This document shows, in pieces, positions 41,426 through 64,000 of a stretch of 64,000 nt of DNA. A program made the position numbers and the translations under genes. This stretch comes from Candidatus Latescibacterota bacterium (GTDB taxonomy: Bacteria; Latescibacterota; UBA2968; UBA8231): NCBI GenBank assembly GCA_965203175.1, contig OZ241867.1:5024001-5088000 (forward strand). The letters are read 5' to 3'. Each line of letters starts with the position of its first letter. Within the stretch, counting starts at the first letter, position 1. Below the pieces are notes generated by a model that was not told where the DNA came from, did not search any database, and was given only the letters and a program-made list of their open reading frames with translations.

Positions 41426-41462
41426 ACGCCTTTTGCAGGTGGGCTTGTCTGATAGATTTTTT
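41426..41462. repeat. 37 bp direct repeat, second copy
   Basis: Matches 39914-39950. Confidence 0.9.
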
Positions 41463-41524
41463 GCAGGGTCAGGTGTATCTTATTCCATATCATTCACATT
41501 CTCACCAAAAGAAAGGAAATCGTC

Positions 41525-44149: not shown

Positions 44150-44169
44150 TGTTCCCTGGGCCGCTGTAC

Positions 44170-45957: not shown

Positions 45958-45980
45958 AGTTTCCGCTCATCGCCCGGGCA

Positions 45981-47368: not shown

Positions 47369-48241
47369 CTACTCTTGGCGCACCAACCGGGCTCCGGTGC
47401 CGGCATTGCGGCTAGTCGGGTCACCACCCGAGCGATTGGCCGACCGCAAGACGTGGCCGTAATTGCCAAAGGCCCCGCCGCGACCGACGCGCAAAAAACC
47501 CTTGGCCGGCCCCTTGGGATCAACCTCGGGCGAATTGCTGTAAGGCTCGTTCGAGTACCAATCCTGGACCCACTCCCACACATTCCCGTGCATGTCGTGC
47601 AGGCCCCATGGATTGGGCAGCTTGGTGCCCACGGCGTGGCCGTAGCGCTCGTCCACCTCCCAAGTGTTGTCCGCGTACCAAGCGTACTTTGGCAAAGCGC
47701 TATCGTCCTCCCCAAAGGACCACGGCGTCGCAGTGCCAGCGCGGCAGGCGTACTCCCACTCCGCGGCCGTGGGCAGGCGGTACACTTCCGCGCCAGCCAT
47801 CCGGTTGAGACGACGTGCGAATTCCTGCACATCTTCCCACGAGATGTACACGGCCGGATGGTGCGGATTTTCCTCGACATGGCTCTTCCCCACCCACGGC
47901 TGCGAGTGCATGACACTGGTCCACTGAGCCTGCGTGATCTCGTATTTCCCTATGTAGAAGCCCCGGCTGATGGTAACCCGGTGCTGCGGGCCTTCGTTCT
48001 GATCTCGTCCGGGTTCGTCGGCGGGCGAACCCATGAGGAAACTACCCCGGCCGATCCACACCATGTCCATGGTCGCACCGCCGGGTAGTTCCACGGCGAT
48101 GGCTTGACCCGTGGGCCGCCGCACCTCTTGGATGTATCCGGTTATTCCGGGCGCAAAAAAATATAAAGCTCCAGCTAGTGCGCCCAAAATCGCCAAGACC
48201 AAGAGGCCAAGCACTCTTCTTGACAGGCGAAAAGTGAGCAT
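47369..48241 (-). CDS. Formylglycine-generating-enzyme (SUMF1) domain protein, membrane-anchored
   Basis: FLMGS, YEITQAQW, RLPTAAEWEYACRAG, NPWGLHDMHGNVWEW, RGGAF. Confidence 0.92.
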   Translation of the reverse strand: MLTFRLSRRVLGLLVLAILGALAGALYFFAPGITGYIQEVRRPTGQAIAVELPGGATMDMVWIGRGSFLMGSPADEPGRDQNEGPQHRVTISRGFYIGKYEITQAQWTSVMHSQPWVGKSHVEENPHHPAVYISWEDVQEFARRLNRMAGAEVYRLPTAAEWEYACRAGTATPWSFGEDDSALPKYAWYADNTWEVDERYGHAVGTKLPNPWGLHDMHGNVWEWVQDWYSNEPYSNSPEVDPKGPAKGFLRVGRGGAFGNYGHVLRSANRSGGDPTSRNAGTGARLVRQE

Positions 48242-48254
48242 CTATATCTCAGAA

Positions 48255-50471
48255 ATGAATGTCCACCTAGTAAAAGTACGTCTCTACACTGTCGCCACCT
48301 CTATAGTCCTAGCGGCCTGCAATATCTCGTCCTCTCCGCCGCAGCAAGGGCCTGGCACAAAGCGCATGGCCTCCCGCCTCGAAGAAATCGCCCGCAACCT
48401 CAACCCCGCCACAAATACCTACATCAATGATGCAAGAGTCGAGTACTTGCGCCAGCTCGACCTGCCCGCCGACCCGGTTGACAGAATGCGCCTACAGGTG
48501 CATCTGGCGCGCGAATTCCTGCGCGCCGGCCACAGCCAAGAGGCCATCGACCGCTTTGTACACCTAAAACAACAACTCGGCACAACCAAGACCAAACCCA
48601 GCGTGCGCAAACTCCTCGCCCTATCCTATCTCCGCTTAGGCGAACAGGAAAATTGCCTGCAACAGCACACGAGCGAATCGTGCCTCTTTCCCATCGGCCC
48701 GGCCGGGGTGCACCACAACCAGCGGGGAGCACGGGCCGCACTTGAAGAATTCACCGCTATCCTACAGGACGACCCCGGCGAAATGACGGCCCGCTGGCTC
48801 CTCAATATCGCGTACATGGTCCTAGGTGAATATCCCGACTCTGTGCCGTCGCAATGGCTCATTCCCCCAACGGCCTTTGCCTCCGACGGCGACATCGGGC
48901 ACTTTGGCGACGTCGCTTCGCAACTGGGGCTGGACGTGGTATCGCTGGCGGGAGGCAGCATCGTCGAGGACTTTGACCGCGACGGCTATCTGGACATCAT
49001 GGCCTCATCTTGGGGCCTCCGCGATCAACTCCGCTACTTTCGCAACCGGGGCGACGGCACCTTTGACGATATCACCGCAGAGGCCGGCTTGAACGGTGTC
49101 GTCGGCGGCCTGCAAATCGTCCACGCCGACTACGACAACAACGGCTTTGCCGATGTGCTCATCCTGCGCGGGGCCTGGTGGGAAGAAGACGGCCGGCACC
49201 CCAACTCGCTGCTGCACAACTACGGCAACCGCTTTTTCGACGATGTCACCGAAGAAGCCGGCTTGCTCGCCTTTCATCCCACCCAGACGGCTGCCTGGGG
49301 CGACTACGACAACGACGGCTGGGTCGATCTGTACATTGGCAACGAATCTTTTCGCCATAATATTCACCCCTGCCAACTCTTTCACAACCAAGCCGACGGC
49401 ACGTTCGCCGATGTGGCGCAAGAAGCAGGCGTTGCGGTCTCGGGTTACGTCAAGGGCGTCGTCTGGGGCGACTACAACAACGACGGCCAACTCGACCTGT
49501 ACATTTCGCGGCTCACCGCTCCCAATCTCCTCTTCAGGAACGAGGGCGAAAATACATCCGGCCAGTGGACCTTTGCCGACGCGACCGCCCAAGCCGGGGT
49601 AGCTGAACCCGTCTGGAGCTTTCCGACTTGGTTTTGGGACTACGACAACGATGGCTGGCTCGACCTATTCGTCTCCGGGTATCACGCCAATGCCGGTGAT
49701 ATAGCGGCTGAATACTTAGGTCTGCCCCACGGTGCCGAGTATCCCCGCCTGTACCACAACCAAGCCGACGGCACGTTCGCCGATATGACCCTCCAAGTCG
49801 GGCTCGACAAGGTACTCTACACTATGGGGTGCAATTTCGGCGACCTCGACAACGACGGCTGGCCCGACTTTTACGCGGGTACGGGTTCACCTTCGTTCCG
49901 CTCGATCATGCCCAATCGCATGTTCCGCAACGCCGAGGGCCAATCGTTCCAAGAAGTCACTACCTCGGGTGGGTTCGGACACCTGCAGAAAGGCCACGGC
50001 GTGGCCTTTGGCGATCTCGACAACGACGGCGATCAGGACATCTACGCGGTCATAGGAGGCTCCTATACCGGGGATCTGTCCCACAATGTCCTCTTTGAGA
50101 ATCCCGGACACGGCAACCACTGGCTCACCCTCCAATTGGAAGGCGTGCGCTCCAACCGCGCCGCTATTGGGACCCACATCCAAGTCGGGGTACACACCGC
50201 AAGCGGCCGTCGCGACATCTATGCCACAGTGACGGCCGGAGCCAGTTTTGGCGGTTCGAGCTTACAGCAGGAAATTGGCCTAGGCCAGGCGATGGCCATC
50301 GAGTCAGTCGCAGTCACCTGGCCGGCTTCTGGCGAGACGCAGCTTTTCACCGGCTTGGCCATGGATCGGGCCTATAAAATCCGCGAAGGGGATCCGGTCC
50401 CAACCCCCGTCGAACTGCAAGCCTTTGACCTGTCGCCCGCTGGCCGAACCGGGCGCGCTCACCATCCTTAA
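48255..50471 (+). CDS. CRTAC1-like lipoprotein with N-terminal TPR-like region, FG-GAP repeats and ASPIC/UnbV
   Basis: ATG at 48255, lipobox LAAC, LRLGEQENC, DYDNDG repeats, GHLQKGHG, SNRAAIG. Confidence 0.9.
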   Translation: MNVHLVKVRLYTVATSIVLAACNISSSPPQQGPGTKRMASRLEEIARNLNPATNTYINDARVEYLRQLDLPADPVDRMRLQVHLAREFLRAGHSQEAIDRFVHLKQQLGTTKTKPSVRKLLALSYLRLGEQENCLQQHTSESCLFPIGPAGVHHNQRGARAALEEFTAILQDDPGEMTARWLLNIAYMVLGEYPDSVPSQWLIPPTAFASDGDIGHFGDVASQLGLDVVSLAGGSIVEDFDRDGYLDIMASSWGLRDQLRYFRNRGDGTFDDITAEAGLNGVVGGLQIVHADYDNNGFADVLILRGAWWEEDGRHPNSLLHNYGNRFFDDVTEEAGLLAFHPTQTAAWGDYDNDGWVDLYIGNESFRHNIHPCQLFHNQADGTFADVAQEAGVAVSGYVKGVVWGDYNNDGQLDLYISRLTAPNLLFRNEGENTSGQWTFADATAQAGVAEPVWSFPTWFWDYDNDGWLDLFVSGYHANAGDIAAEYLGLPHGAEYPRLYHNQADGTFADMTLQVGLDKVLYTMGCNFGDLDNDGWPDFYAGTGSPSFRSIMPNRMFRNAEGQSFQEVTTSGGFGHLQKGHGVAFGDLDNDGDQDIYAVIGGSYTGDLSHNVLFENPGHGNHWLTLQLEGVRSNRAAIGTHIQVGVHTASGRRDIYATVTAGASFGGSSLQQEIGLGQAMAIESVAVTWPASGETQLFTGLAMDRAYKIREGDPVPTPVELQAFDLSPAGRTGRAHHP

Positions 50472-50491: not shown

Positions 50492-51559
50492 ATGCGCATC
50501 ACCCGCGTCGAAACCCTAGTCGTGAGGCTACCCGGAAAAGGAGAAACCAGGGAGTGGCCCATCGTCCTCATCCACACCGATCAGGGTCTGCAAGGCATTG
50601 GCCGCGGCGGCGATCCACGGGTGATCGCCCGCGATCTGGTGCCCCTGCTCATAGGACGAGATCCGCTCAGCATTGCCCAGCTTTGGGAACAGATGTACGA
50701 AGCCGTGTGGCGCGGACCGGGCCGGTCGGCCATGTCCTCCATCGGGGCCATAGACGTGGCCTTGTGGGATCTGTGCGGCAAGATCTGCGGACAACCAGTG
50801 TGGCGGCTCTTGGGTGGGTACCGGGACAAGATCCCGGTGTACGCGGACGGAGCCGGATATCAAAATGCGCCGGATCAGTCCCCACAGGGCATAGCAACCG
50901 AGGTCAAAAAATTCATCGACCTGGGTTATGACGCCGTCAAAATCCACATGTACCGGGCTGCCAATCCCGAGGAAGTAGTAGAGCGAGTACAGCGTTCACG
51001 CGAGTTGATTGGTCCGCGCAAGAAGCTGATGATCGACGTGCACCACGCCTGGGACGGAGACGAGGCCGTGGCGACCGCCCGCCAACTCGAAGACTACCAA
51101 CTCTACTGGATTGAGGAACCAGTGCGCCAAGACGACGAGCTGTCCTATATGCGCAAAGTCCAAGAGGTCACCACGGCCTTGGTGGTCGGCGGCGAAGGCG
51201 AGGGCACCCTCCACGGTATCAGGCGCTTGCTCGAAGCAGAAGCCCTTGAGGTGGTGCAGACCGATATCCTAACCGGCGGCGGCTATACTGGGCTCAAGCG
51301 GATCGCCGCTCTGGCCCAGGCTTTTGATGTCCTCATATCTCCGCACGGGGCGCAGTACCCGGACATCAACTGCCACCTGATGGCGGCCGTGCCCAACAGT
51401 TTAATCATGTCCACCTGTCCCGAAAGCGAGAGCCACCAGATCTGGTCCCGTCTGTACAATCCCCCTCTCAAAATCGAGAACGGGCACATCGCCATGCGCG
51501 AACAGCCCGGCCTGGGCTTGGAACTAGATTGGGAGTTTGTCGAGCGTCACCGGGTCTGA
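50492..51559 (+). CDS. Mandelate racemase/muconate-lactonizing enzyme family protein
   Basis: AIDVALWDLCGK..GQPVWRLLGG, MIDV, WIEEP, GGE, SPHG, PGLGLE. Confidence 0.92.
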   Translation: MRITRVETLVVRLPGKGETREWPIVLIHTDQGLQGIGRGGDPRVIARDLVPLLIGRDPLSIAQLWEQMYEAVWRGPGRSAMSSIGAIDVALWDLCGKICGQPVWRLLGGYRDKIPVYADGAGYQNAPDQSPQGIATEVKKFIDLGYDAVKIHMYRAANPEEVVERVQRSRELIGPRKKLMIDVHHAWDGDEAVATARQLEDYQLYWIEEPVRQDDELSYMRKVQEVTTALVVGGEGEGTLHGIRRLLEAEALEVVQTDILTGGGYTGLKRIAALAQAFDVLISPHGAQYPDINCHLMAAVPNSLIMSTCPESESHQIWSRLYNPPLKIENGHIAMREQPGLGLELDWEFVERHRV

Positions 51560-52470
51560 TTGCCGTCCCGTCCCAAAACGGCCTTCACCCGTTCCAGTTC
51601 CTCCCCCACCAAGCCTGTTCCATTGGACGCTCCGGCGTTCATTTCCAACTGCTCCATTTGCTTGGCCCCGGCGATGATGGTGGACACTACTGGATAACTC
51701 AGGAGGTACTGGAGGGCGGCCTGGGCCTGGCTGCGCCCCACCCGCTCGAGGAATCGGAGGTCTTCCACTTTCCGCAAAATGATGTGGGCGTCCACCACCG
51801 CCCCCTGTTCGTGCCAGCCACTGCCCGTGAAGGCGTCGGCCGCGTACTTGCCGCTTACCAAGCCCCGGGCCAAACCCTGTTTGACCACGACGCCCACATC
51901 CCGCTCGGCCACCAACCCGAACATGGCGTCCGCCATATCGTGGTAGAGCATGTGGAAGGTGGGCTGCAGCGAGTCAATCAGATCCTGTTCCAGCAGCCAG
52001 ACACCGGCGTCGATGTGGTTGACACTGGCCCCCCAGTAGCGAATCTTGCCCTGCTCCTTCAGGCTCTGCATGGTCTCCAGCCAATTGTTCTCCTGCAAAT
52101 GATGAAGCTGTGGACTGTGCAGTTGGTACACATCGATATAATCCGTCTGCAGCCGGCGCAAACTCGCCTCTACCGCCTCTTCAATATGCCCGGGAGAAAT
52201 ATCTCGTCCCTCTCGGGGGATGACACTGCCGACCTTGGTCGCCAGAATCATCCGGTCGCGGCGTCCCTTCAGCGCCTTTCCCAATATGACCTCACTCCTC
52301 CCTTCCTGGTACACGTCCGCTGTATCGACGCAATTGATGCCCAGTTCCATGGCCCGATACACCATGGCGATGTGCTCGGACTCGGTCAGCTCCTGCCGGC
52401 CCAGCATATTGGTACCATAGCCGATTTCGGACACCTTTAGTTCAGTCCTGCCCAATCTTCGGTAGTGCAT
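51547..52470 (-). CDS. Aldo/keto reductase
   Basis: LGRTELKVSEIG, DTADVY, SLRRLQTDYID..QLH. ATG at 52470 with GAGGTG SD. Confidence 0.93.
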   Translation of the reverse strand: MHYRRLGRTELKVSEIGYGTNMLGRQELTESEHIAMVYRAMELGINCVDTADVYQEGRSEVILGKALKGRRDRMILATKVGSVIPREGRDISPGHIEEAVEASLRRLQTDYIDVYQLHSPQLHHLQENNWLETMQSLKEQGKIRYWGASVNHIDAGVWLLEQDLIDSLQPTFHMLYHDMADAMFGLVAERDVGVVVKQGLARGLVSGKYAADAFTGSGWHEQGAVVDAHIILRKVEDLRFLERVGRSQAQAALQYLLSYPVVSTIIAGAKQMEQLEMNAGASNGTGLVGEELERVKAVLGRDGNQTR

Positions 52471-52481
52471 ATTCACCTCGC

Positions 52482-54443
52482 TCAGAAATAGACTAGAATA
52501 TTTCCCTGCATACCCGTCGAACTATCAATTAGAAACCACGCACCGCCCGCAGCCACATTGCCCAGAACCAATCCTAGGAAAAATGGCTGAATTCGTCTGT
52601 ACAATCCAGGCCCCCCGTACTTCAAAACCATGCTCTTGAAGAACCACACCAAGAAGACGCTCACCCAGATCTGGTTCGTAACCCAAGTTGTGGCGATGGG
52701 AAAGCCGACCGGATGCAGCGGCCACCACAAAAAGTAGTGCCGCGCCAGCATCAGCAACACCATGACCCCGCCACCCACGGCCACGTAAAACCACCCCTCC
52801 CAGTTCACCGCCATCGGGTTGGCGATCCATCCCGCTACATCTTGAAAGGGCTTTTGCGACCCCACGAAGAAGTACTGGTTCAGGTTGATGCCGCCGTAGG
52901 TATAAGCCTGGCGGAGGAGGTACCAGGTCGAGCCGACCAAACTGATGACCACGGCCCATACCATCGCCCAGAACAGCCGCGCTCCACCACCCTGCGCGTG
53001 CAGTTCCCCGTCTAGCTTTAGCCCGTTGGCGCACGCGGCCATGGCGAAAATGCGCACCTTCAAAATCCACGCGTACGTCATGCCCAGCGCCGCCAAGCCC
53101 TCCGCGCCGATAGCCGTGGTTCCCACCGTGGAAGTCATAAAGGCCTGTGGATAAATCGGCGCCCGGATGGTCGCCAAGCCCGCCTCAGCCACAAAGCGGC
53201 TCAACCCCACGAATAGGACGAAGACCACGAACAAAAACCAAGGCACCAACCAACCCGGCAGTCCCGACAGGGTCAGCCACACGCCTAGGATAGCCAAGCC
53301 GATAATCGTCCCAAACACCGCGGTGCGATAGGAGAGCATTTCCCCAGAATCGTCCACTGTCGCGTCCCCTAGAAAAGCTTTGCGACACACGGCCCGCAGG
53401 TGATTGCGTCCCACCCATAGACTAAAGAGCACAAAGGCAATCAGGGCACCCATGCCCTCGTGGGCGGCAATCGCCTCCGAAGTGGCGTACCCGGTCAGTC
53501 GCTCTGTCATGGCAATGCCCAGGACGCTGAAAAGGCCCTGTTGAGCTGTGGTCAAAAGAAAAAAGACCCAGATGCTCAGGAGCACTTGCAGGTTGACGAA
53601 ATAAGCAAACCCCAAGGTCATAAAGCTGAGGGCGAGGCGCAGGCTCACTTGGTCGCGGAGCACGGGGATACTGGTGTCGAGGACTATCGCGGGGATGAAA
53701 TTGTAATAGCTGTGCAGAGCGTCGAGACTCAGCAGTGCGAATGGTATAGAAAACCCCAGCCACATGATGGGATTGCGGAAAAACGGCCGCATCAGCGAGC
53801 CGTCCTCCGCGATCATCTCCAAGGGCAGCTTCACCAGCGGATATACCAAGCGCTCGTGGTCGATCCACTGCCGCCGCAGAATGACCATCGTACACACCAT
53901 CACGAAACACAAGGTCAAAAAGAACAGCGCCCAGTAGCACAGCGGTTGTATCCACGCTCCCCACGGAATGGAGGCCCCGGCTGGCGCGCCCTCGAAAAAG
54001 TGCTGCACAGCCTCGCCATCTAACGGCGCGATCCACCCCTTCATGTACGGGTGGATCAGGTCCACCCAGTCGTTCTCGGGCGTGGCGTAGTAGAACACAC
54101 TGGCGATTTTGGGCACCATGTGCTCGACATAGCCCTCTGTCGGCACGGTAGCCGCCATCATCGCCATGATGAAGACGATCCCCATCTCGGCGCGGCTCAA
54201 CATCAGCCGTCGATGGACCAGACCGAGGAGGGGATTGACCAGACCTGCGAAGAGCGCAAAGACGAAAAAGGCGATGGGCACGCTGATATTGAGGGCCATC
54301 CACGAGGCGTTGATAAAGGTCGAGTGCAGCGCGCCGATCGCAGCACCCAGCGAGAGGACGCAGCCCCAAAAAAATGCCTTGCAACTCAGACCGGAGGATG
54401 CAGTTGGCGGTTTGGAATCCCGAGGCACCGGCTGCTGGCTCAT
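52482..54443 (-). CDS. DUF6785/DUF6784-type polytopic membrane protein, copy 2
   Basis: ATG at 54443. Close paralogue of 42206-44149 with the same motifs. Confidence 0.8.
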   Translation of the reverse strand: MSQQPVPRDSKPPTASSGLSCKAFFWGCVLSLGAAIGALHSTFINASWMALNISVPIAFFVFALFAGLVNPLLGLVHRRLMLSRAEMGIVFIMAMMAATVPTEGYVEHMVPKIASVFYYATPENDWVDLIHPYMKGWIAPLDGEAVQHFFEGAPAGASIPWGAWIQPLCYWALFFLTLCFVMVCTMVILRRQWIDHERLVYPLVKLPLEMIAEDGSLMRPFFRNPIMWLGFSIPFALLSLDALHSYYNFIPAIVLDTSIPVLRDQVSLRLALSFMTLGFAYFVNLQVLLSIWVFFLLTTAQQGLFSVLGIAMTERLTGYATSEAIAAHEGMGALIAFVLFSLWVGRNHLRAVCRKAFLGDATVDDSGEMLSYRTAVFGTIIGLAILGVWLTLSGLPGWLVPWFLFVVFVLFVGLSRFVAEAGLATIRAPIYPQAFMTSTVGTTAIGAEGLAALGMTYAWILKVRIFAMAACANGLKLDGELHAQGGGARLFWAMVWAVVISLVGSTWYLLRQAYTYGGINLNQYFFVGSQKPFQDVAGWIANPMAVNWEGWFYVAVGGGVMVLLMLARHYFLWWPLHPVGFPIATTWVTNQIWVSVFLVWFFKSMVLKYGGPGLYRRIQPFFLGLVLGNVAAGGAWFLIDSSTGMQGNILVYF

Positions 54444-54453
54444 CGCATGGACC

Positions 54454-55221
54454 TCAGTTTTTAATGGGTTCTCGCTCTCCGCGGGGGTAGTAATAGCCAA
54501 TCTCGCGGTCAAAGGCGTACTCGATGTCGATCATTTCGATCGGTTCATCGCGGAAGTTAAAACGCAGGGCTATATCGCCGAGGCGCAGGCGCACTTTGCG
54601 GACCTCTGGATGGAGGTCTGCAAAGGCGAGGAAGCCTTCGACCTCCTGTCCGCTGAAGACCACCCCGCCAGGGTACAGCGTTCTGCTCAGCAAATCCTTC
54701 CGGCCTTGGAAAGTGGTGTAGAGTTGGCCGACATAACCGGTGATGTACTTGCGGTAGTACTCCTCCATATCGGTCTGGCTCAGCACTGGATAGCGGCGGC
54801 CGTTATCGCTGATGATACCGCTCTTTGCCGGATCGATCAGGATTTTCGGGTACTGATAGTTCTTGACTTTGAGCTGGAAGACGGTAAAGCGCCGGGGCGT
54901 CGTGCCCGTGGAGGGGTCGCGCCAATTGCCAAAGGTATAGGGGTTGGTCGATTCCGTGCCCTGGAGGGATTGAGCGGGGAACAGCCTGTTCAGTTCGCCG
55001 TCGGAAAACGGCCGCACCGATATCTCCAGCCGATCGGCCACATAGGTGACCGTCCCATCGTCGCTGACGATCATCCCAGCAGCTTGGCCCTCTTCATCGA
55101 GAGGACGCAGCGGGTCGGCGTAGTATTGATAGCCGTACCTACAGCTAGCAAGACCCAGCGCTAGGACGAGAATACACGCCCATCGTCTATAGCCAAAAGA
55201 AATCAAAGCGCGCATCGGCAA
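54454..55221 (-). CDS. Uncharacterised lipoprotein
   Basis: Lipobox LASC. STNPYTFGNW, FTVFQLKVKNYQYPK. Co-oriented and tightly spaced in the operon. Confidence 0.8.
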   Translation of the reverse strand: MPMRALISFGYRRWACILVLALGLASCRYGYQYYADPLRPLDEEGQAAGMIVSDDGTVTYVADRLEISVRPFSDGELNRLFPAQSLQGTESTNPYTFGNWRDPSTGTTPRRFTVFQLKVKNYQYPKILIDPAKSGIISDNGRRYPVLSQTDMEEYYRKYITGYVGQLYTTFQGRKDLLSRTLYPGGVVFSGQEVEGFLAFADLHPEVRKVRLRLGDIALRFNFRDEPIEMIDIEYAFDREIGYYYPRGEREPIKN

Positions 55222-55230
55222 TGCCTTTTT

Positions 55231-57069
55231 CTAGTATGCTACGGCCACCGCGCCACCGCGAACCTGCGCGCCGACGGCGGCGTCCATTAAAACCCGATAA
55301 ATGTACACCCCCGGTGGTACTAGTCGCCCCGCCCCATCCCTACCGTCCCAGACTACGCGGCCGAAACCGCTGGACTGGGACATCGCTTGGCTCCAGACGA
55401 GACGGCCGGAGAGGTCATGGACTGCGAGTTCAACAGGAACGGGTACCGTGGCCTGGAACAGGTTATACGTGAACTCCGCCCAATCGTTCACGCCATCCCC
55501 GTTGGGCGTAAAGGGATTGGGATGGATCTTCACCTCAGCCAGCAACTCCCCCTGCTCCTTTGGGGAAAACCCGACGAGCAAATCCTCTGAATTGAGGTCA
55601 ATGTGCACATCGCCGGGAACAATTGGCTGGGGCATCTCGTCGCGTTTGCTGTTGAAAACTCGGCCCTCAAAGCGCGTGCCCGAGACAAAAACGCGGCAGT
55701 CGAAATCGACTTCGATTAGGATCGCATCCCGGTCGATCAAGCGCTCGGGAAAAGAGACGCGCAGGCGGTTTTCCTCCACTTCGGCGATAAAATCGTCCGA
55801 GCTTATGCCAGCGATCCGCACCTCTTGCACCACCGCGGCAGTAGGTGTGGCGATCTCCACTCCGTCGAAACCGGGGTCTCCAGGATCCACGCGCGGCCTC
55901 AGCGCATAGGTGAAGCGCACTAGTTCGCCCGGGGAGACGAGCGCGGGCCAGATCTCGCCGGCGACCTGCTCGACCAAAGGCGGAGAAAACTCAACCGAGA
56001 GGGAATCAATGCGGGAACGCGACAGCGGCAGCGCGCTGGCAAAGTCGATCTCAAACTGGAAATAGCGAGCAGGTTTGGGGGCGACCAAGGGTTCCCTCCC
56101 AGTGGACGGATAGGGCGCAGACCACGGAGTCCAATTTTCCGTATCGGCTACAATAGGGCCCCTCGCCTTGGGGTGCAGCGCGTCGTATGCGCTGCGCGAT
56201 ACGGCCTGTTGGCCGTTTTGTCCTATGCCCGTAAAGCTGAGGTAGATATTCGGATCGGGCGTCGAGCCGCTTCGCGTGCGAATCTGCAGGGCACTGCCGG
56301 GATCGTCCACCGCATCCCAAGTCATAGCCCCCAGAACGACCGGCTCGCCAAAGTCGATGATGTCGGATGTAAAGGTGGCTGAGGAGGCATATCCCCTGCC
56401 CCAGACCTCCACCTCGCTGAGTTGCCAGAGACGAGCACTGGGCAAGCTGATCGTATCGGACAGAGCCACATAGCGCACCAAGCGCGGCGGAATTTCGATG
56501 TGCGCTGTATCTCCCTCGGTCTGCTCCACCTCGGCTACCAGCTCCCACTCGCGCACGAACCAGTGCCAGTTTCTCTGCCTTTGGGGAAAGGCAACGGGCT
56601 GCTTGCCGTCTTGGATGAAAACTTGGAACCCTTCGATAAAGCGGAACTCAAGTCCTTCGACCGCCGAAAAACCAATGCGATCTACGCCGAATGGTGCCCC
56701 CAAATCGACGACTAGGACAACGGCGAAAAAGGGGTCGTTCTCGCGCGTATTGACGATATCGAGTTCGATGGGGGGCCAGCCACTCAAACGGTCGCCGTCC
56801 ACTACATTTTTCAGGCTCTCGAATTTCCGCCAAGTGTAGTTGGTCAGCACCCGCGCCGAGTCCAACTGGCGCAGGTTGAGGGCTAGGTTCTCGCCCGACA
56901 CTTCGAGCGGCTCTAGCCAGCCGGAACTCTGCTCGTCGCTCAACAACTCCAAGGTGCCGACGGTATTCCAGGGACGTTCCTGCCCGCCGACTGTCCAGAG
57001 GTCCACGGCTGTAGCCCGTACCCAAAGGCCCAAGACGAGGAACAGAGTAGCAGTGCGTCTTCTGGCCAT
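55231..57069 (-). CDS. Secreted discoidin-like protein with FlgD-Ig/CHU_C-like module (type A)
   Basis: Signal peptide. WTVGG..RPW, VDLGAPF, RTRSGSTPDPNIY, PNPFTPNGDGVND. Ends VAY. Confidence 0.87.
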   Translation of the reverse strand: MARRRTATLFLVLGLWVRATAVDLWTVGGQERPWNTVGTLELLSDEQSSGWLEPLEVSGENLALNLRQLDSARVLTNYTWRKFESLKNVVDGDRLSGWPPIELDIVNTRENDPFFAVVLVVDLGAPFGVDRIGFSAVEGLEFRFIEGFQVFIQDGKQPVAFPQRQRNWHWFVREWELVAEVEQTEGDTAHIEIPPRLVRYVALSDTISLPSARLWQLSEVEVWGRGYASSATFTSDIIDFGEPVVLGAMTWDAVDDPGSALQIRTRSGSTPDPNIYLSFTGIGQNGQQAVSRSAYDALHPKARGPIVADTENWTPWSAPYPSTGREPLVAPKPARYFQFEIDFASALPLSRSRIDSLSVEFSPPLVEQVAGEIWPALVSPGELVRFTYALRPRVDPGDPGFDGVEIATPTAAVVQEVRIAGISSDDFIAEVEENRLRVSFPERLIDRDAILIEVDFDCRVFVSGTRFEGRVFNSKRDEMPQPIVPGDVHIDLNSEDLLVGFSPKEQGELLAEVKIHPNPFTPNGDGVNDWAEFTYNLFQATVPVPVELAVHDLSGRLVWSQAMSQSSGFGRVVWDGRDGAGRLVPPGVYIYRVLMDAAVGAQVRGGAVAVAY

Positions 57070-59669
57070 CAGTCCAGTCCGGCGAATATGACGAGGAACG
57101 ATTCGACGCGGTTTTGTTCCCGGTCCTCAAAGCGCTGCTGCTGCACTTGCGTCCCCAAGTTTATGGTCACCTGATATCCGAGGTACGCCTGGGTAACGGA
57201 TAGCTGCAGCGCGCCGACCCAACCCCAAAAATCGAGCTGCGCTCCAGGTTTGTCGGCCCAATCCCAGAATTTGGTCAATTCCGTGCCGCCTTCCAGTTCG
57301 AGATTGGGCATCAACTGCACCGCCAGCGTCAGAAAGAGGATCTCAGACAGGTCGTTTTTGCTGCCCTCACTTTCCAGATAGGCGGTCTGGCGTCGGTACA
57401 TGCTCTTCAATTTGGGGTGGAATACCAGTGCTTCCGTGAGTTGGAAAGAGTAGTCGAGTTTGTGGATCAGTCCGAGGAAATGGGAATCGTCGATGATCTC
57501 CGGTTCTTCCCCGGGCCGGGTGAGCCGGGCGACATTGTCGCCGCGCTGAGCGAGGCCCTCGTATTTGACCTTGGCCGACGTGTTGAAGCGGCCCCAAGCC
57601 TGGTCGAAACCAATAAAAACCGAGTTGACGACCGCGTTTTGGGCCAGCATGGGGTCTTCAAAGGGAAATTCGCTCACGCCGAACGTACCCGGCGGCTGCG
57701 TCCAAAACAACTGGTCGTCAATGATGTTGTCTTCGACGAACTTGAGCTGGTAGAAAAAGCGGAATTGGCCCAACGCGACCCGGTCTTGCTGCATTTTGAA
57801 GAGCAGATAGGAGAAGCGACTGCGGCGATCGGCTGACAACAGCCACTGGTTTGAATAGCCTCCTAATAGCTGGACCCCGGGGAAGATATTGATGCCTAGG
57901 TATCCATTGTACCCTCGGTGGTCCCGTTGGAACGGATAGTCGGCCTCGTCGTCATCCTCAAAGCGGTCGATTAGGGTGTTGTTGTCCATGTCGATACCAA
58001 AGAGGAATTCGGGCGGATCCACGGTGTAGCGGAGGAAGGGTTCGTCGTAATCGGGTCGGGTGTTGTCGTTCTGGTTGAAATCCGAGATAAAATCGTTGTT
58101 CTCGTCCAAGCCGGGAAATATCCCGCCTCTGGGGCCGCCGGAGATGGACCGGCGCTGACTTTCGTTGGGTTGCTGGGCCCGGCGCCAGTCGGGAAAGCGA
58201 TCTTGGTCATCGTTGTCGTCGACAAATTCATACACGCCGCGCAGCTTGTTGGTGTAGTCGAGCTTGCCCTGCTGATCCTGGATGTACATAGACGTGGAGT
58301 AGTCCTGGTCCACGCTGAAAATTTCGCCGTACGCAAACCACGGATAGTACCGACTCGTAGTGCGCGCGGTCAGGTATCCAACTTGAGCGGTGTTTGCGGC
58401 CCGCACATGCCTTTCGAAATTCACATTGGGCAGGCGGCGCCACTGATTGTTGTTATTCCACTCGGCCATGATGTCGAGTCCGGCGACATCCTGGACCTCA
58501 AGCGTCAGACCGTAGATTTCGTTGGCCGTCGGCAGGCCGTAGTCAAAGCGGACGAGACGCTGGTTGGAGCCGTCTTGGACATTCCGCGCGGACTTAGCCA
58601 CGGGCAGGTACACGGGTTGGTCCGAGAAATCGGTCTGTAGGTTGGAAGTCACCTCCACCAAGTAATCATTGGCCAATACCAGTTCAAAGACTAGCTTGCG
58701 GATCAATTCGGGCTGGGCAAACGCGTAGGTCAGGACGATCTGCTCGGCTCCGTCGGCGACCAAGGCTCCGCGGCGCGGCGTGCCGCCCTCGACTAGGGGG
58801 ACAATATCGAGAGGTTCGGTGTCTGCATTCGCCAAGACGCGCTCGGAAAAGAGAATAGCGCCCCCCTTGCCGTCCTCCGGTGAATCGTCGCTGATGCGGA
58901 TTTGCACTTGGCGGATGACGTCGCGATTCTGCTCGGTCGTCAAGTTTCCCGCGCGGATCCCGGCCAGACTCAAATCCGGCGAGGTCCGCCCCAGATGGGC
59001 ATTGACGTACGTGCCACCCATCTGGACGAAATCCCCTATCTGCACCGTCGTCCTGAAGCCGAGCAAATTGTTGAAATCAGTGATCTTCGATTCGTTTACC
59101 TCTCCCCCTTCGAGCGCTATGGGCAGGTTGACCCGAGACATGAGCAAGGTCGCCGCGTATTTGTCCGACTGGAGATCGACCTGGACCCCATTGAAGGCTG
59201 GTTTGGAAAAAGTAAAAGGGGTCAGGGCCGTGCGGATCTCATCGCCGACCGTCACGGCAAAGTAGTACTGGCCCCTTTGCACCTGGGTCACAACCAGCCT
59301 GTTGAACCAAGAATTGAAGCGGCTGCTCTTGAGGATGTCGCTGCCAAAGGTCGTGGGCTGCTCCTGGGTCCAGCGGTAGATCTGCCAGCCCTCGGTCACG
59401 TAGTTCCCGTAGAGATCGTACCAGCGCGTGCCCTCCAGTTCGGTATCTACGTAGCGCTGGTAGGGAACTCTGGCGTAATTGGAATACTGCCACCAATCCC
59501 ACTTGTACTCGGCGTAGAGTTGCTGAGGGCGATACCACTTCTGGATAGTGGGATCAATGGCATCAAAAAAGGTCTGGGCCCCCGTCGGGTTCAGGGCCTG
59601 CGCCTGACACGCTGGCGGCACGGCCGCGAGCAAGGCCACGGTGATTGCGATGTATTTGCAGTAGGTCAC
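57069..59669 (-). CDS. ~866 aa secreted, probable outer-membrane protein with Asp-rich Ca-binding-like motifs
   Basis: GTG at 59669, signal peptide ending AQA. DDNDDQDRFPD, DENNDFISD, DMDNNTLIDRFEDDDEAD. Amphipathic beta-strand-like C-terminal third. Confidence 0.75.
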   Translation of the reverse strand: MTYCKYIAITVALLAAVPPACQAQALNPTGAQTFFDAIDPTIQKWYRPQQLYAEYKWDWWQYSNYARVPYQRYVDTELEGTRWYDLYGNYVTEGWQIYRWTQEQPTTFGSDILKSSRFNSWFNRLVVTQVQRGQYYFAVTVGDEIRTALTPFTFSKPAFNGVQVDLQSDKYAATLLMSRVNLPIALEGGEVNESKITDFNNLLGFRTTVQIGDFVQMGGTYVNAHLGRTSPDLSLAGIRAGNLTTEQNRDVIRQVQIRISDDSPEDGKGGAILFSERVLANADTEPLDIVPLVEGGTPRRGALVADGAEQIVLTYAFAQPELIRKLVFELVLANDYLVEVTSNLQTDFSDQPVYLPVAKSARNVQDGSNQRLVRFDYGLPTANEIYGLTLEVQDVAGLDIMAEWNNNNQWRRLPNVNFERHVRAANTAQVGYLTARTTSRYYPWFAYGEIFSVDQDYSTSMYIQDQQGKLDYTNKLRGVYEFVDDNDDQDRFPDWRRAQQPNESQRRSISGGPRGGIFPGLDENNDFISDFNQNDNTRPDYDEPFLRYTVDPPEFLFGIDMDNNTLIDRFEDDDEADYPFQRDHRGYNGYLGINIFPGVQLLGGYSNQWLLSADRRSRFSYLLFKMQQDRVALGQFRFFYQLKFVEDNIIDDQLFWTQPPGTFGVSEFPFEDPMLAQNAVVNSVFIGFDQAWGRFNTSAKVKYEGLAQRGDNVARLTRPGEEPEIIDDSHFLGLIHKLDYSFQLTEALVFHPKLKSMYRRQTAYLESEGSKNDLSEILFLTLAVQLMPNLELEGGTELTKFWDWADKPGAQLDFWGWVGALQLSVTQAYLGYQVTINLGTQVQQQRFEDREQNRVESFLVIFAGLD

Positions 59670-59680
59670 AAAAAACCGCC

Positions 59681-62065
59681 TTAGTAGGCTACTCCGACGA
59701 GCCGTGTAAACTCCCTCGTCGGCTCGTCGCTGTCGATGCTCAGGCGAAACAGGTACACCCCAGGAGGCACCATATTGCCCGCCCAATCGCGGCCGTCCCA
59801 CAAAAGGACGTACTCCCCGCTCGACCCGGACTGGTCGCGCAGCCGAGCGACCAGTCGCCCCCCCAGATCGTACACGACCGCCCGAAGTTGGCGGGACGCC
59901 TCCAAGCCGACCAGCGCAAAGTGCACGGTCAACTGTTCGTTGCGCCCATCTCCGTTCGGCGTGATCACCGACGGCCTGATCGTCGGGGTGCGGAGACCGC
60001 TGCTGCCGGCCGGTAGGAAAACTCGCAGGTCGTCGCCTAGCTCGTCCGGGCTCGCATCCCCCGGATCAATCTGTTGCCAAGAGCCCGGCTCAGCCGAGCG
60101 CCGTACAAAACCCTCAAAGAGCGTGGCATTGAGGAAGACTTGGGTGGCGAAATTCACCTCGATCAGTTGCGCGGCCTGTACCGCCGTCGGCAGGGTGAGG
60201 ACCAGTGAGTCCGCCGCGGCCCGCACGGCAACGGGCTCTATTTCCTCGCGGTTTAGTTTCAGGCCCCGAAAGACAGGCTGGGTCGGAACGCGAATCAAAA
60301 TCTGGTCGAAACCGCGAGACCCAGACCCGAAACTAGGGCGGATGAAGTAGGAGAATTCTTCCGGCTGGCCCGGTGTAGCTACCCGAGGGACGATTTCGGC
60401 GACGATCTGTTCGGCCGCCGGGTCCGTGAATTCAAGCGCCACACTGGACAGAGCCGGAGCCCGCTGCGGATCATCGCTGATCAACTCCACTTGTATCTGG
60501 GCATAGCTGCGGGGGCTGGGCGATTGAAAGCGCGCACCCGAATACTCGTAGGGCAAGCTCCACGGACTCCATCCCGCGCCTGGGATGAGTTCGACGGTGG
60601 GCTCTTTCTCGCGTTTGAAGGGCGGCAGCTTGTTCCAGGCCTTTTCAGTGTATTCATTGCCCTCCTTGTCGAAGTAGTGCAGTTTCTCGCCTAGCTCATT
60701 GCCCGTGCGCGTGCGCACCGCCAGTCTAGTAGCCGGCGGCGTCTCTCCGTTCCAGTGGATGGCCGTCAGGTTTTTGGCCCCGCCTAAGTCGATCAAGCCA
60801 GAGGTCAAGGTGACGCCCGGAATGAACCCCTCCCCAAAAGCCTGGATCTCCCGCACGGTTGAGACGCCCGTGCGCCGCTGATTGCGATTCGACCAGAACA
60901 GGTAGCGCACCTTGCGCGGGGGCAGGTGCTCTTCAAAGATGAAGCGCTCAGGAGCGGGATTGGCTTCAAGTTCGGCAAGCTCTTCCCAGACTAGGTCGTC
61001 GAAATCGATGAACTCGCCTGCGCCCGCGCCACTGCTGCGCATCCCGTCCGAGGCAAAGAGTTTGTACCCGAAGACCGGAACGTTGCGCTTGCCAGTGAAC
61101 TCAAAGGACGTGATGATGCGCACATGGTCTACCCAGAATAGCGTTCCCAAGTCTATGTTGACCCACCCCCACCGCTTGGGGTCGCCGAAGAAATAGCCTA
61201 GGGAATTCCAGCCCGTATTGTAATTCCCGTCTATGATATCCGAAGCAAAGGTCGGTGGCTCGCTTTCGTCGCCTCCGGCCGGTGCGATGAGCGCGCCGCC
61301 CCCCCGTTGCTCGCTGCCCAAGACGATATTGTCGCCCAAGGCACTGACCTCGATTTCGGCCAAGCGCGGATTTTCGGCTGTGCGCAGGGCACGAAACAGC
61401 ACAAAGCGCACGAACTGCCTAAAGGTCAGCTCGCCTCGGCCGCTCAATTTCACGTCCTGCGGCAGGAGCGGATAGGTGAGTTCGTACTCGGTATTGGGAC
61501 GGGTCGTCTCGGCCAACAAACTGTATTTCTTGAGTCCAGAGCCAAAATAGACGGCTTCCTCGCCCGTAGAGACAAATACCTGGAACATGCTGAAAGGATT
61601 GCCCGAGTGGGCGAATTTTACCGCGATCTCCGTGGCGGAGACGGCCCGGCCTAGATCCACTTCTACCCACCAATCCTCAAGGGGGGCACCAGCGGCAGGG
61701 GTCCAAAACGTCTCCTCGTCGCCGTCGAGAATGCGGCCGGCCATTCTAAGGTTCGTGCCCGCCCCGCGTATGCCGCCCAAGCGCTCTTCTCCGTCCCCAA
61801 AGTCGCCCAGCACGGAGAACTGGTCGACATTGAGCGCGGCATTAATCGATTTGCGGATGAAGACCGGGCTAACTCGGCCGTCCGGCGCAATCGCAATAGT
61901 CCCCTCGGGAGCGCTCCACGCGCGCCACTGCGACGAGCGACTGAAGCGAATTTCACCAGCCAGCGCATCCCAAGGCCAGAGGAGGAAAAGGCCAGCGCAA
62001 ACGACGAGCATCTTCCCTGTGGGGTACGAAATAGTTGAAGTTGCTTTTCTCCTAGTGTGCCCCAC
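59681..62065 (-). CDS. Secreted discoidin-like protein with FlgD-Ig/CHU_C-like module (type B)
   Basis: Exact start uncertain. WRAWSAP, DGDEETFWTP, VDLGRAV, SPSPRSY, ITPNGDGRNE. Ends VAY. Confidence 0.87.
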   Translation of the reverse strand: MGHTRRKATSTISYPTGKMLVVCAGLFLLWPWDALAGEIRFSRSSQWRAWSAPEGTIAIAPDGRVSPVFIRKSINAALNVDQFSVLGDFGDGEERLGGIRGAGTNLRMAGRILDGDEETFWTPAAGAPLEDWWVEVDLGRAVSATEIAVKFAHSGNPFSMFQVFVSTGEEAVYFGSGLKKYSLLAETTRPNTEYELTYPLLPQDVKLSGRGELTFRQFVRFVLFRALRTAENPRLAEIEVSALGDNIVLGSEQRGGGALIAPAGGDESEPPTFASDIIDGNYNTGWNSLGYFFGDPKRWGWVNIDLGTLFWVDHVRIITSFEFTGKRNVPVFGYKLFASDGMRSSGAGAGEFIDFDDLVWEELAELEANPAPERFIFEEHLPPRKVRYLFWSNRNQRRTGVSTVREIQAFGEGFIPGVTLTSGLIDLGGAKNLTAIHWNGETPPATRLAVRTRTGNELGEKLHYFDKEGNEYTEKAWNKLPPFKREKEPTVELIPGAGWSPWSLPYEYSGARFQSPSPRSYAQIQVELISDDPQRAPALSSVALEFTDPAAEQIVAEIVPRVATPGQPEEFSYFIRPSFGSGSRGFDQILIRVPTQPVFRGLKLNREEIEPVAVRAAADSLVLTLPTAVQAAQLIEVNFATQVFLNATLFEGFVRRSAEPGSWQQIDPGDASPDELGDDLRVFLPAGSSGLRTPTIRPSVITPNGDGRNEQLTVHFALVGLEASRQLRAVVYDLGGRLVARLRDQSGSSGEYVLLWDGRDWAGNMVPPGVYLFRLSIDSDEPTREFTRLVGVAY

Positions 62066-62077
62066 TTTCTCGTCCTC

Positions 62078-63850
62078 TCAGTAGACCAAGGCCACAAGCT
62101 CGGCCCTTTCGTTGGCCCCCGTGGCCGAATCTACGCTTATGCGACACACGTACAACCCCGGTGCGGCTAAGGAGCCCTCGCTCGCTCTGCCGTCCCACTC
62201 CACCGCGTGAAAACCGCTACTCTGCATGCCATTGAAAAGCGCCCGGACTCGCCTCCCCGCAAGGTCGTATATAGCCGCCTCGACGGATACGGGCTGGACG
62301 AGTTTGAATATGCTGTACTGAATGCGCATTCGGTCGTTGAGCGAGTCGCCGTTGGGCGTAAAGGGGTTGGGTGCAATGGCCAAGTCGCCCAAAATGGTAC
62401 CGTCCAATTCCAACTCGACCGAAAAGTGATTGGTATTGAGATCGATACTGGCATCGCCGGGCAGGACATCTTGAGCTAGTTCACCAGACTGGCTGGCGAA
62501 CACGCGGGAGGAAAAAAGGGTGCCGAATTCGATCACCTTGGCAGCGAATTTCAGTTCCACCAGTACCCCGTCTTTTACGACGGGATGATTCGGAAAGCGC
62601 ACCGTCAGGAGAGAATCCGTCGCTTCCCAGGTAAAATCTTCGATCGGGGTACCACCTACAGTTAGTTCGCTCAGGCGGGCCCGGGTCGGCGTAGAAAGTT
62701 CCACCGCATCAAAGCCCGCATCGTCATCGAGGATGCGCGGCCGCATATGGTAGGTAAAGGGCGTGGTCTCCCCGGCGATGACGAATTTCGGCTCGATTTC
62801 GGCCACTACTTCGTGGGCCGGTGGCGGAGAGGAAATTTCAAAGGCGAGCGAATCCATCTGAGCCGCCGCGGCAAAGCGGTCGCTGACCAGTTCAACGGCA
62901 AACTGGAAATAGCGCCGGGGCGCCGGCGAGCGGATGCGCGAGCCACTCGTGGCGTGCGGTGGCGACCAAAGGCTCCAGTTTGCCAGATCGGGCCGTTTTA
63001 CCTGCTGGTTTTCCCTCAGGTTGTCGTACTGGTCTTTGCTTACTTCTTCGAGTGTAGCCCCTCGGCGCCGGTAGTAGAGGTAAGGATCGGGGGTCGAGCC
63101 ACTGCGGGTAGTCACCTCGACTGCGCCGCCCGCATCGGTCTGAGCGGCCCAAGTCAGCGCTCCCAGAGTGGCCAAGCCGCCTAAATCGATGACGTTGGAC
63201 GTGTACACCGCCTGCGGTGCAAAGCCCTGGCCATAGACTTCCAATTCGGCGATCTCCCAGGGCAGCGGACTGGTGAATATCAGCATGATCCACCGGACAT
63301 AGCGAGGTGCGATATCGACTGTGACCACCTCGCGTTCGTTGCGGGTCGTTCGGGCCGCCAAATCCCAGACTGGATCTCCCCGCAGCGGGTCGCTTTCGTC
63401 GCTGACGTACAGTTCGTATCCCCGCAAAAATCGGTCTCCCTGCTCAATGCGGGGATAGAACGAAACCTGATAGACTCCACTGAAAACCCGGCCCAGATCC
63501 AGAATGATCCGTCCCCCTATCTGTCTAGAGTGCTCAATGGGAAAAATCGTGGCGATTTTCCCGTCGATCAGCGCCCCCAAGCCGGTCTGGGGATCGGCCA
63601 GACCCCGGACCGAAGGCTGCGGGCTGTCGATATTGCCGCCTTCGGCCAAGGCCCGCAAACTGAGATTTTCGTCGGGCGATATGCGCTCGGGCTGTAGCCA
63701 ACCCGGACGACTCGCCAAGTCAACAGCTCGCACAGTCCCCCACTCTTGCCACGGACGCTCACTACCGCCAAAAACCAGTACTTCCCGGGCACTCGCGGGT
63801 TCGCCGATCAAGAGGGTAATCAGCAAGAGAGGCTTAAATAGAATGGTCAT
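62078..63850 (-). CDS. Secreted discoidin-like protein with FlgD-Ig/CHU_C-like module (type A)
   Basis: ATG at 63850. VFGGSERPW, SNVIDLG, TRSGSTPDPYLY, PNPFTPNGDSLND. Ends LVY. Confidence 0.87.
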   Translation of the reverse strand: MTILFKPLLLITLLIGEPASAREVLVFGGSERPWQEWGTVRAVDLASRPGWLQPERISPDENLSLRALAEGGNIDSPQPSVRGLADPQTGLGALIDGKIATIFPIEHSRQIGGRIILDLGRVFSGVYQVSFYPRIEQGDRFLRGYELYVSDESDPLRGDPVWDLAARTTRNEREVVTVDIAPRYVRWIMLIFTSPLPWEIAELEVYGQGFAPQAVYTSNVIDLGGLATLGALTWAAQTDAGGAVEVTTRSGSTPDPYLYYRRRGATLEEVSKDQYDNLRENQQVKRPDLANWSLWSPPHATSGSRIRSPAPRRYFQFAVELVSDRFAAAAQMDSLAFEISSPPPAHEVVAEIEPKFVIAGETTPFTYHMRPRILDDDAGFDAVELSTPTRARLSELTVGGTPIEDFTWEATDSLLTVRFPNHPVVKDGVLVELKFAAKVIEFGTLFSSRVFASQSGELAQDVLPGDASIDLNTNHFSVELELDGTILGDLAIAPNPFTPNGDSLNDRMRIQYSIFKLVQPVSVEAAIYDLAGRRVRALFNGMQSSGFHAVEWDGRASEGSLAAPGLYVCRISVDSATGANERAELVALVY

Positions 63851-63864
63851 GTGCCTATCGTAAC

Positions 63865-64000
63865 TCACTGTGCGGCAACCCGTATAATGAACCCACCTTC
63901 GACTCCTTCGGGTGCGATGCCAATGCGAATGATCTGGCCGGGGGCCACAAGGGCTGTCTGCGGGGGGAAGGACGACTCGCCTTGCGCGTTCAGGGGCGAA
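63865..64000 (-). CDS. 3' end of an upstream gene cut by the window edge
   Basis: Open minus-strand frame ...SPLNAQGESSFPPQ...GFIIRVAAQ* with stop at 63865-63867, just upstream of the next gene. Confidence 0.5.
   Translation of the reverse strand, partial: SPLNAQGESSFPPQTALVAPGQIIRIGIAPEGVEGGFIIRVAAQ

Follow-up and report, generated by a model that had tools for sequence, protein, structure and literature searches.

A repeated Latescibacterota gene cassette built on a new family of predicted outer-membrane barrels: a candidate surface capture-and-uptake locus

Gene content of the locus

The subject of this analysis is a string of genes in a 64,000-nt stretch of DNA from a Candidatus Latescibacterota bacterium (assembly GCA_965203175.1, contig OZ241867.1, positions 5,024,001 to 5,088,000), here called the window; coordinates are positions of this window. 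The source genome is one 6.58-Mb contig of 59% GC and 93% completeness. Seven co-oriented genes (A1, B, X, A2, L, P and an aldo/keto reductase gene) span 51547-63868, and all seven lie on the minus strand (Table 1). A1, B and A2 are paralogous secreted proteins, X is a predicted outer-membrane barrel, L is a lipoprotein, and P is a predicted transporter of the inner membrane. As set out below, X is accompanied by A/B genes in its own genome and in others.

Table 1. Genes of the cassette and its neighbours, in window coordinates
Feature	Position	Strand	Description
CBM9-like protein	64814..65764 (window-equivalent, past the window end)	-	316 aa, secreted, encoded upstream of A1
A1	62078..63868	-	596 aa, secreted lectin-type protein, C-terminal FlgD-Ig / T9SS-CTD-like domain
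B	59681..62065	-	794 aa, longer than its paralogues by an F5/8-type-C (discoidin, CBM32-type) domain added at the N terminus, same tail
X	57069..59669	-	866 aa, no described family, predicted large outer-membrane beta-barrel
A2	55231..57069	-	612 aa, second A-type paralogue
L	54454..55221	-	255 aa, lipoprotein, unnamed conserved family
P	52482..54443	-	DUF6785/DUF6784 polytopic inner-membrane protein, predicted OPT-fold secondary transporter
Aldo/keto reductase	51547..52476	-	309 aa, final gene of the string; Aldo_ket_red 175 bits
Enolase-superfamily (MR/MLE) enzyme	50492..51559	+	MR_MLE_C 179 bits; convergent neighbour
FG-GAP / ASPIC-UnbV protein	48111..50471	+	Pfam matches; family recurs beside the cassette
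T9SS, type IX secretion system; CTD, C-terminal domain.

An earlier note, made from the sequence alone, had described six co-oriented and tightly spaced genes followed by the reductase gene. This was confirmed by the distances calculated from the coordinates, which are 12 bp between A1 and B, 11 bp between B and X, a 1-bp overlap of the X stop codon with the A2 start codon, 9 bp between A2 and L, 10 bp between L and P, and 5 bp between P and the reductase gene. The distances were computed with the X start at 59669 and the P start at 54443. The open frame of X extends to 59801 (910 aa), the 866-aa form being database protein P0001, and that of P reaches 54512 (676 aa) with 54443 as the likely ATG start. 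The same note had delimited the module as 52482..63868, which proved too narrow, because the cassette goes on past the window end. The longer open frame of A1 passes this end, up to window-equivalent 64054, and upstream of A1 follow the gene for the CBM9-like protein and, beyond it, a divergently transcribed gene for a PpiC-type peptidyl-prolyl isomerase (PPIase). None of the families Plug, TonB_dep_Rec and ABC_tran was found among the 44 open reading frames (ORFs) of the window that were scanned, in agreement with the previous statement that SusC, TonB and ABC ATPase genes are missing from it.

Recurrence of the cassette

Counts within the source genome were obtained with profiles built from the genome's own paralogues. 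The genome contains 62 X genes. Each of them (62/62) has a full-length A/B gene no more than 10 kb away, and 42 have an A/B gene directly upstream on the same strand. The regions up to 10 kb from an X add up to 15.2% of the genome and contain 117 of the 169 full-length A/B genes, 35 of the 45 CBM9-like genes, 33 of the 40 PPIase genes, 15 of the 18 L genes, 39 of the 71 TPR genes, and 24 of the 60 members found with the genome's own FGGAP profile. L lies near only 19 of the 62 X genes.

In order to follow the cassette in other organisms, a pattern scan of one genome per species was made, which yielded 576 confirmed X relatives. The best 80 loci were examined; they come from 40 assemblies, as counted by isolate name, and 78 of them could be annotated. 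The assembly titles were nearly all Latescibacterota, with some Gemmatimonadetes/Gemmatimonadota, and one 3-kb contig with an X relative was titled Thermoplasmata. A/B genes were present in 73 of the 78 annotated loci, directly upstream of X in 59, and the five loci without A/B were short contigs that do not exceed 6 kb. Fifty loci are 20 kb or longer; of these, A/B genes were found in 50, CBM9-like genes in 45, PPIase in 40, L in 37, TPR in 28, P in 18 and FG-GAP/ASPIC in 15. The commonest order was CBM9-like, L, A, A, B, X, then PPIase, FG-GAP/ASPIC and TPR. The closest two loci (L027 and L028) contain the gene set of the window in permuted order. The expectation that the set recurs in other genomes near varied transport and catabolic genes was thus borne out, and the failure to co-occur elsewhere that the earlier note had named as a refutation was not observed for the A/B-X core.

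The distribution of X within the phylum is patchy. In an even sample, X was detected in 95 of 151 genomes: in 63 of 63 genomes of the window's own family, in none of the genomes of three other families of the same class (0/30, 0/19 and 0/2), and in 31 of the 36 remaining sampled genomes. In five X-less genomes of 95-99% completeness, the B profile hit the tail domain in 46 of the 50 matches listed, and the remaining 4 were short fragments; full-length A/B is missing from these genomes as well. Gain and loss of X go hand in hand with gain and loss of full-length A/B.

The arrangement of these genes varies. A second layout of the cassette involves 26 of the 62 X genes of the source genome: two X genes that differ in length (about 930 aa in one, about 960-1010 aa in the other) lie side by side after one A gene. 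Judged by score, 49 X frames group with the window copy, and 11 form a divergent subgroup. Members of the latter are 25-33% identical to the window X and occur as tandem twins or triplets at 2.792-2.807, 5.640-5.650, 6.156-6.173 and 6.511-6.520 Mb. ExbB/ExbD genes are found near two of these sites, which hints that some barrels of the X family may be energised. The tail domain of the A/B proteins is carried by 245 proteins of the genome, and of its 91 A/B clusters, 25 are more than 10 kb from any X. Two A-type plus B-type pairs with the same tails lie in the window with no X nearby in it, one at 3365-7736 on the minus strand (672 and 782 aa) and the other at 24277-28858 on the plus strand (645 and 875 aa). 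A 247-aa frame without a Pfam family (7780-8523, minus strand) is placed directly upstream of an A/B pair, and a 666-aa frame, likewise without a Pfam family, is found at 18518-20518 on the minus strand.

Encoded proteins and neighbouring genes

A1 is 36% identical to A2 (E 1e-114) and 31% identical to B across 500 residues (E 4e-61), and signal peptides were read directly from the translations of A1 (MTILFKPLLLITLLIGEPASA), B, X and A2. The description of three paralogous secreted proteins with an Ig tail therefore holds, with FlgD_ig and CHU_C matches in the tails. FlgD_ig was above its cut-off of 27 bits in A1 (35.2 bits) and B (31.6 bits) and reached 26.1 bits in A2. CHU_C (PF13585, cut-off 27) reached 31.8 bits in A2, 26.7 in B and 23.0 in A1, and TIGR04131 scored 16-18 bits on the A/B tails against a cut-off of 35. 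The discoidin motifs of the earlier note stood for B, in which F5_F8_type_C (PF00754) passes the cut-off (36.2 vs 28.2 bits). A1 and A2 have no PF00754 hit of their own and carry such a region only through homology to B, both aligning to the second such region of B with 31% identity. The family profile A5 matches FlgD (3osv) with an E-value of 1.8e-7 and, weakly, solved CBM32 and galactose-binding domains (E 0.015-0.16). Judged from these sequence matches, A/B are sugar-binding-type proteins, and carbohydrate binding is predicted.

The tails of A/B point to a type-IX-like step of export and anchoring. In the source genome, a frame of 2133 aa scores above cut-off with SprA_N (82 bits), whereas the PorV-like match (147.5 bits) remained below the cut-off of 250. 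GldM (model GldM_1st) and PorP_SprF (PF11751) had no match in this genome. The positive control for PF11751 was also silent in every genome, and the genome is incomplete, so that the absence of PorP_SprF and GldM does not follow. It is plausible that the 245 tail-bearing proteins take a type-IX-like route, with an incomplete set of components.

L carries the lipobox LASC (in LGLASC, read directly from the sequence), which bears out the earlier lipoprotein call. It has no Pfam family, its family profile gave no meaningful PDB match, and every one of its 222 homologues is unnamed or "hypothetical"; DUF4352 was matched by 4 of 32 L relatives at E-values of at least 0.014. The 316-aa CBM9-like protein itself had no Pfam hit. 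CBM9_1 was matched by 15 of its 31 aligned relatives (best E 2.7e-9), and the family profile matches the solved CBM9 1i82 of Thermotoga xylanase 10A (E 2.1e-6).

X was modelled with AlphaFold2 (AF2) from an alignment of 63 homologues (pLDDT 75.9, pTM 0.76). A manual count on the DSSP assignment of the model gave about 24-26 long hairpin-linked strands, and two long insertions interrupt them, a beta domain at about 229-370 and a poorly modelled segment at about 454-583. In a Foldseek search every listed row was an outer-membrane barrel (SlpA, MtrB, LptD, TonB-dependent transporters, ushers, porins), with TM-scores of only 0.12-0.26. The 50 rows listed by a VIA structure search were likewise all membrane beta-barrels, the best match being DcaP (Z 14.7, rmsd 5.0 over 245 residues). 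By sequence, X belongs to no Pfam or NCBIfam family and has no Pfam hit even at E<=5, and its family profile had no match at E<=1 among the sequences of solved structures (PDB). X is therefore predicted to be a large outer-membrane barrel, as the earlier note had proposed for the 866-aa protein, and one that falls within none of the known barrel families, because its fold matches are all distant and no sequence hit to a solved structure was obtained.

The segment at about 454-583 carries most of the invariant columns of the X family. Its conserved Asp and Asn columns lie at 485-577 and include the invariant D485, N486, D488, D490, D494 ... D560, N564, D568, E571, D573 and D577. We infer from these DxDxD/DxNxD runs that they may form Ca2+-binding loops; EF-hand, TSP3 and dockerin models did not match X even at E<=5. 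If the tight turns of the model are periplasmic, both insertions would face outward.

P scores 395.2 bits with DUF6785 and 104.1 bits with DUF6784, both above cut-off. Its AF2 model, built from 21 paralogues (pLDDT 86.1, pTM 0.88), matches barley Yellow Stripe 1 (HvYS1; 7wst/7wsr) in Foldseek with TM-scores of 0.64/0.69, a probability of 1.00 and an E-value of 1.5e-6, while all other entries listed had TM-scores of 0.18 or less. Sequence identity to HvYS1 is 11-12%. At E<=0.01, OPT (PF03169) was absent from the matches of P. Faint signals in the sequences agree with the fold: on the OPT model a DUF6785 paralogue reaches 16.4 bits against a cut-off of 25.8, and OPT is carried by 11% of the members of one Atlas cluster. 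No PDB match was obtained by sequence, either from the single sequence or from the profile, and the Atlas offered no structure of P. Since the modelled fold is that of the OPT-superfamily symporter HvYS1, P qualifies on the strength of the model as a genuine transporter of OPT type and, by fold, as an importer, in line with the inner-membrane permease noted earlier. A second DUF6785/DUF6784 gene, 75% identical to P, lies in the window within 42206-47312 on the minus strand, and it adjoins an FG-GAP/ASPIC-UnbV gene (44170-45957) and an Nramp-like transporter gene (45981-47312).

Around the X genes of the source genome, 140 non-cassette ORFs of at least 150 aa were found within 8.5 kb of any X and compared with Pfam (E<=1e-5 for 72 ORFs and E<=1e-9 for the other 68). 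No Pfam family was assigned to 36. Components of ABC uptake systems accounted for 16 ORFs, sulfatase or formylglycine-generating enzyme (FGE) for 8, PhyH and GFO/IDH/MocA for 4 each, MFS, ExbB/ExbD, the enolase superfamily and GDSL for 3 each, and Amidohydro_2 for 2. PL4, GH5, GH2-like, UxuA, DHDPS-like, HpcH, lactonase and aldo/keto reductase occurred once each, and the remainder was mixed. The enolase-superfamily neighbour of the window string is likely to represent a catabolic context.

Elsewhere in the window, five tandem Cache-only proteins (dCache_2/sCache_2) with no output domain detected are encoded at 32601-35202 and 40323-42094 (plus strand). Three tandem paralogues of 475-494 aa with a C-terminal AhpC/TSA-redoxin domain and an uncharacterised N-terminal half lie at 35327-39890 (plus strand); two more genes whose translations resemble them are located about 60 kb away, just past the window end (L107:4940-7979, plus strand). 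At 8530-12116 (plus strand), genes of the types LPG_synthase_TM, DUF3047 and GT4 glycosyltransferase follow one another and possibly serve lipid or envelope modification.

Capture and uptake, display or export

Latescibacterota are widespread, uncultured inhabitants of sediments, soils and sponges and are credited with polymer degradation. We know of no mechanism by which they take up their substrates. The cassette had been held to be undescribed, and no description of it was found in the literature covered, subscription journals lying outside this coverage. Searches for DUF6785, for Latescibacter* with "type IX secretion", and for Latescibacter* with "outer membrane" and "carbohydrate-binding" returned no paper. 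The literature on Latescibacterota and "polysaccharide utilization" contained nothing on the cassette by title or abstract, and among the papers listed for Latescibacter* in combination with FlgD, discoidin, CBM32, DUF6784 or CBM9 there was none that mentions Latescibacter*. A search for UnbV with SusD also found no paper, and a putative adjacency of FG-GAP/ASPIC genes to SusC/SusD in Bacteroidota could not be documented.

In several respects the cassette resembles the SusC/SusD polysaccharide utilization loci (PULs) of Bacteroidota. Many diverged copies occur per genome, surface binders are encoded beside a large outer-membrane barrel, and varied uptake, sulfatase and sugar-acid genes stand alongside. 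The core parts are not homologous to SusC/SusD, as judged by sequence. Unlike SusC-like and other TonB-dependent transporters, X has no Plug (PF07715) or TonB_dep_Rec match even at E<=5, and such transporters appear only among its generic barrel matches (TM 0.12-0.23, Z 8.9-10.6). Pfam found no SusD family in the seven locus proteins, and the cassette binders are Sec-exported, CTD-tailed proteins of lectin type, not lipoproteins. Elsewhere in the genome, 31 frames above cut-off are Plug-bearing receptors and SusD_RagB gave one weak hit.

We consider it about an even call that the locus belongs to a Latescibacterota cell-surface cassette for capture and uptake, present in many copies and built around the novel barrel; it is probably the phylum's counterpart of the nutrient-capture loci of Bacteroidota. 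A1, B and A2 would be exported by Sec. They appear to be built of galactose-binding-like (discoidin/CBM32-type) and Ig-like domains and to end in a FlgD-Ig domain of the kind that serves as a C-terminal signal for type IX secretion. They may be brought to the cell surface and retained beside X, where contact between A/B and X would be expected. X would form the barrel of about 24-26 strands, with the beta domain and the Asp/Asn-rich, Ca2+-binding-looking loop directed outward, and L and the CBM9-like protein would complete the surface complex. The polymer captured by the complex would probably be a glycoprotein or a glycan that is sulfated or contains uronic acid. Its fragments would pass through X, cross the inner membrane via the OPT-fold P, or via ABC systems in other copies, and then be processed by the adjacent reductase and enolase-superfamily enzyme. 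The genes with their paralogy, the recurrence of the cassette and the co-occurrence of A/B with X are observations, and the barrel and the OPT fold are results of modelling; the surface location, the contact of A/B with X, the passage through X, Ca2+ binding and the identity of the substrate are our inferences.

Several results weigh against this reading. No plug domain was found in X and none could be placed in the model; a barrel of about 25 strands is a pore that requires a plug. A TonB box was not searched for, and with the plug missing an energised uptake of SusC type is not supported. The tail scores of A/B straddle the Pfam cut-offs and fall below both NCBIfam cut-offs for T9SS tails, and the lack of a GldM match points in the same direction. 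Known substrates of OPT transporters are peptides and metal chelates, not sugars. The flanking genes have the flavour of a PUL, in raw counts taken without a genome-wide background; among them, polysaccharide-degrading enzymes are scarce (one PL4, one GH5 and one GH2-like enzyme in 140 ORFs).

The linkage of P to the cassette is also loose. Only 24 of the 56 P genes of the genome lie within 10 kb of an X (20 in the counts made with the genome's own profiles), compared with about 8.5 expected from the 15.2% zone, and 35 of 56 lie within 10 kb of A/B, a zone that makes up 26.8% of the genome. Five X-less genomes contain 23-49 copies each. From this loose tie and the abundance in X-less genomes we conclude that the DUF6785/DUF6784 importers have expanded on their own and are drawn into a cassette only at times, as here. 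P can no longer be counted as a fixed part of one machine. The family resembles the OPT superfamily in that the P model superposes on HvYS1, and differs from it in its expansion to 23-56 copies per genome and in the OPT Pfam score, which stays below cut-off.

The expression data call for similar caution. RNA-library contigs from four libraries of three studies, 90-99% alike to the stretch, fell on 22-28 of its 30 bins and covered all seven genes, and single contigs spanned the junctions B/X (three runs), X/A2 (one), A2/L (one) and P/aldo/keto reductase (two). Most of these contigs are only 90-95% alike and may be carried-over DNA or stem from relatives. They are a hint of expression, not proof of a single transcript, and the 2-8 of 30 bins per run without contigs are no sign of silence.

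The analogous but non-homologous uptake machine proposed in the earlier note has thus been upheld in part: the barrel prediction, the recurrence, the lack of homology to SusC/SusD and the fold of P stand in its favour, whereas P is not a fixed member and transport is only inferred. More tentatively, and with appreciably less confidence than an even call, the cassette may represent a nutrient-capture paradigm of its own, independent of SusC/SusD. Lectin-type proteins with type-IX-like tails would dock on a plugless barrel of about 25 strands gated by a Ca2+-binding loop, with 20-110 specificities per genome, coupled to equally expanded OPT-fold importers, and this would be the phylum's main route of feeding on polymers.

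The main alternative is that the cassette serves surface display only, which we regard as possible but somewhat unlikely. X would then anchor or shuttle its cognate CTD-tailed A/B proteins, and nothing would be transported through it. A/B would be adhesins for particles or for the matrix of a sponge host, and P and the enzymes would be mere neighbours. The DNA runs that hold the stretch are labelled sponge or marine metagenome, and the sponge label is compatible with such a role. In two papers, PorP/SprF-like barrels are described as anchoring type-B cargo in Bacteroidota, with a gene for Ig-like-tailed cargo directly upstream of a dedicated barrel gene (SprB-SprF type; PMC9143113, PMC12618676). 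A/B and X show this cargo-then-barrel arrangement in 42 of the 62 copies of the source genome and in 59 of the 78 annotated loci of other genomes. The score of CHU_C, a type-B family, above cut-off in A2, the SprA-like and PorV-like genes of the genome, and the joint loss of A/B and X with P behaving independently also fit display. However, X is no PorP/SprF relative: it is not in PF11751, has no Pfam hit, is about three times as long as the 273-position PorP_SprF profile, and contains two large insertions. Among the A/B tails, that of A2 is the sole one above the Pfam cut-off for type B and none reaches that of TIGR04131, GldM was not found, and the organism stands outside Bacteroidota. In addition, the invariant acidic loop and about 25 strands exceed the needs of an anchor, and 62 diverged anchors, each with a CBM9-like protein and often near uptake and sugar-acid genes, would better fit nutrient specialisation.

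A role in export or assembly appears quite improbable. X would in this case be a pore similar to ushers or to those of polysaccharide export, and would secrete or polymerise either A/B or a polymer of the cell surface, with the SurA-like PPIase and the TPR proteins as periplasmic chaperones. Ushers (FimD, PapC) and exopolysaccharide pores of the BcsC, PelB and PgaA type are indeed among the barrel matches of X, the A/B proteins contain Ig-like domains, and PPIase (33/40) and TPR (39/71) genes cluster within 10 kb of X; moreover, a classical type-IX motor is unproven, as GldM was not found. Yet the usher and pore folds match no better than porins or TonB-dependent transporters (TM 0.12-0.26; Z 10-12 vs 14.7 for the best match), the cassette contains no glycosyltransferase or polymerase, the SprA-like translocon already exists for the 245 tail-bearing proteins, and it is difficult to see why near-identical architectures should need 62 parallel export systems.

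The top Foldseek rows of X, LptD-LptE, MtrB-MtrA and Deinococcus SlpA (E 1.8e-10 to 2.3e-7), recall large partner-enclosing barrels, which X resembles in predicted strand number and in the conserved lipoprotein encoded in the cassette, and from which it differs in the TM-scores of only 0.19-0.26 and the lack of any sequence relation.

That the locus is no functional unit at all, but a dense scatter of expanded families (169 A/B, 62 X and 56 P genes, so that some chance adjacency is expected, with P nearly independent), is hardly credible and is already contradicted for the A/B-X-L core by the gene gaps from a 1-bp overlap to 12 bp, the gene order kept in 40 other assemblies, the A/B genes near 62 of 62 X genes when 26.8% of the genome lies within 10 kb of A/B, and the joint absence of X and full-length A/B.

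With tens of copies per genome, the cassette claims a considerable part of what these genomes can encode, and it is built around barrel and lipoprotein families without any annotation. If the cassette only anchors its cargo, it would still show that tail-bearing cargo is paired with a cognate barrel outside Bacteroidota too, there with barrels of a new family. If capture and uptake is the true function, the cassette would be a non-homologous parallel to the PULs of Bacteroidota, its genes would provide markers for predicting substrate use from metagenomes, and DUF6785/DUF6784 would gain a first functional frame as OPT-fold importers.

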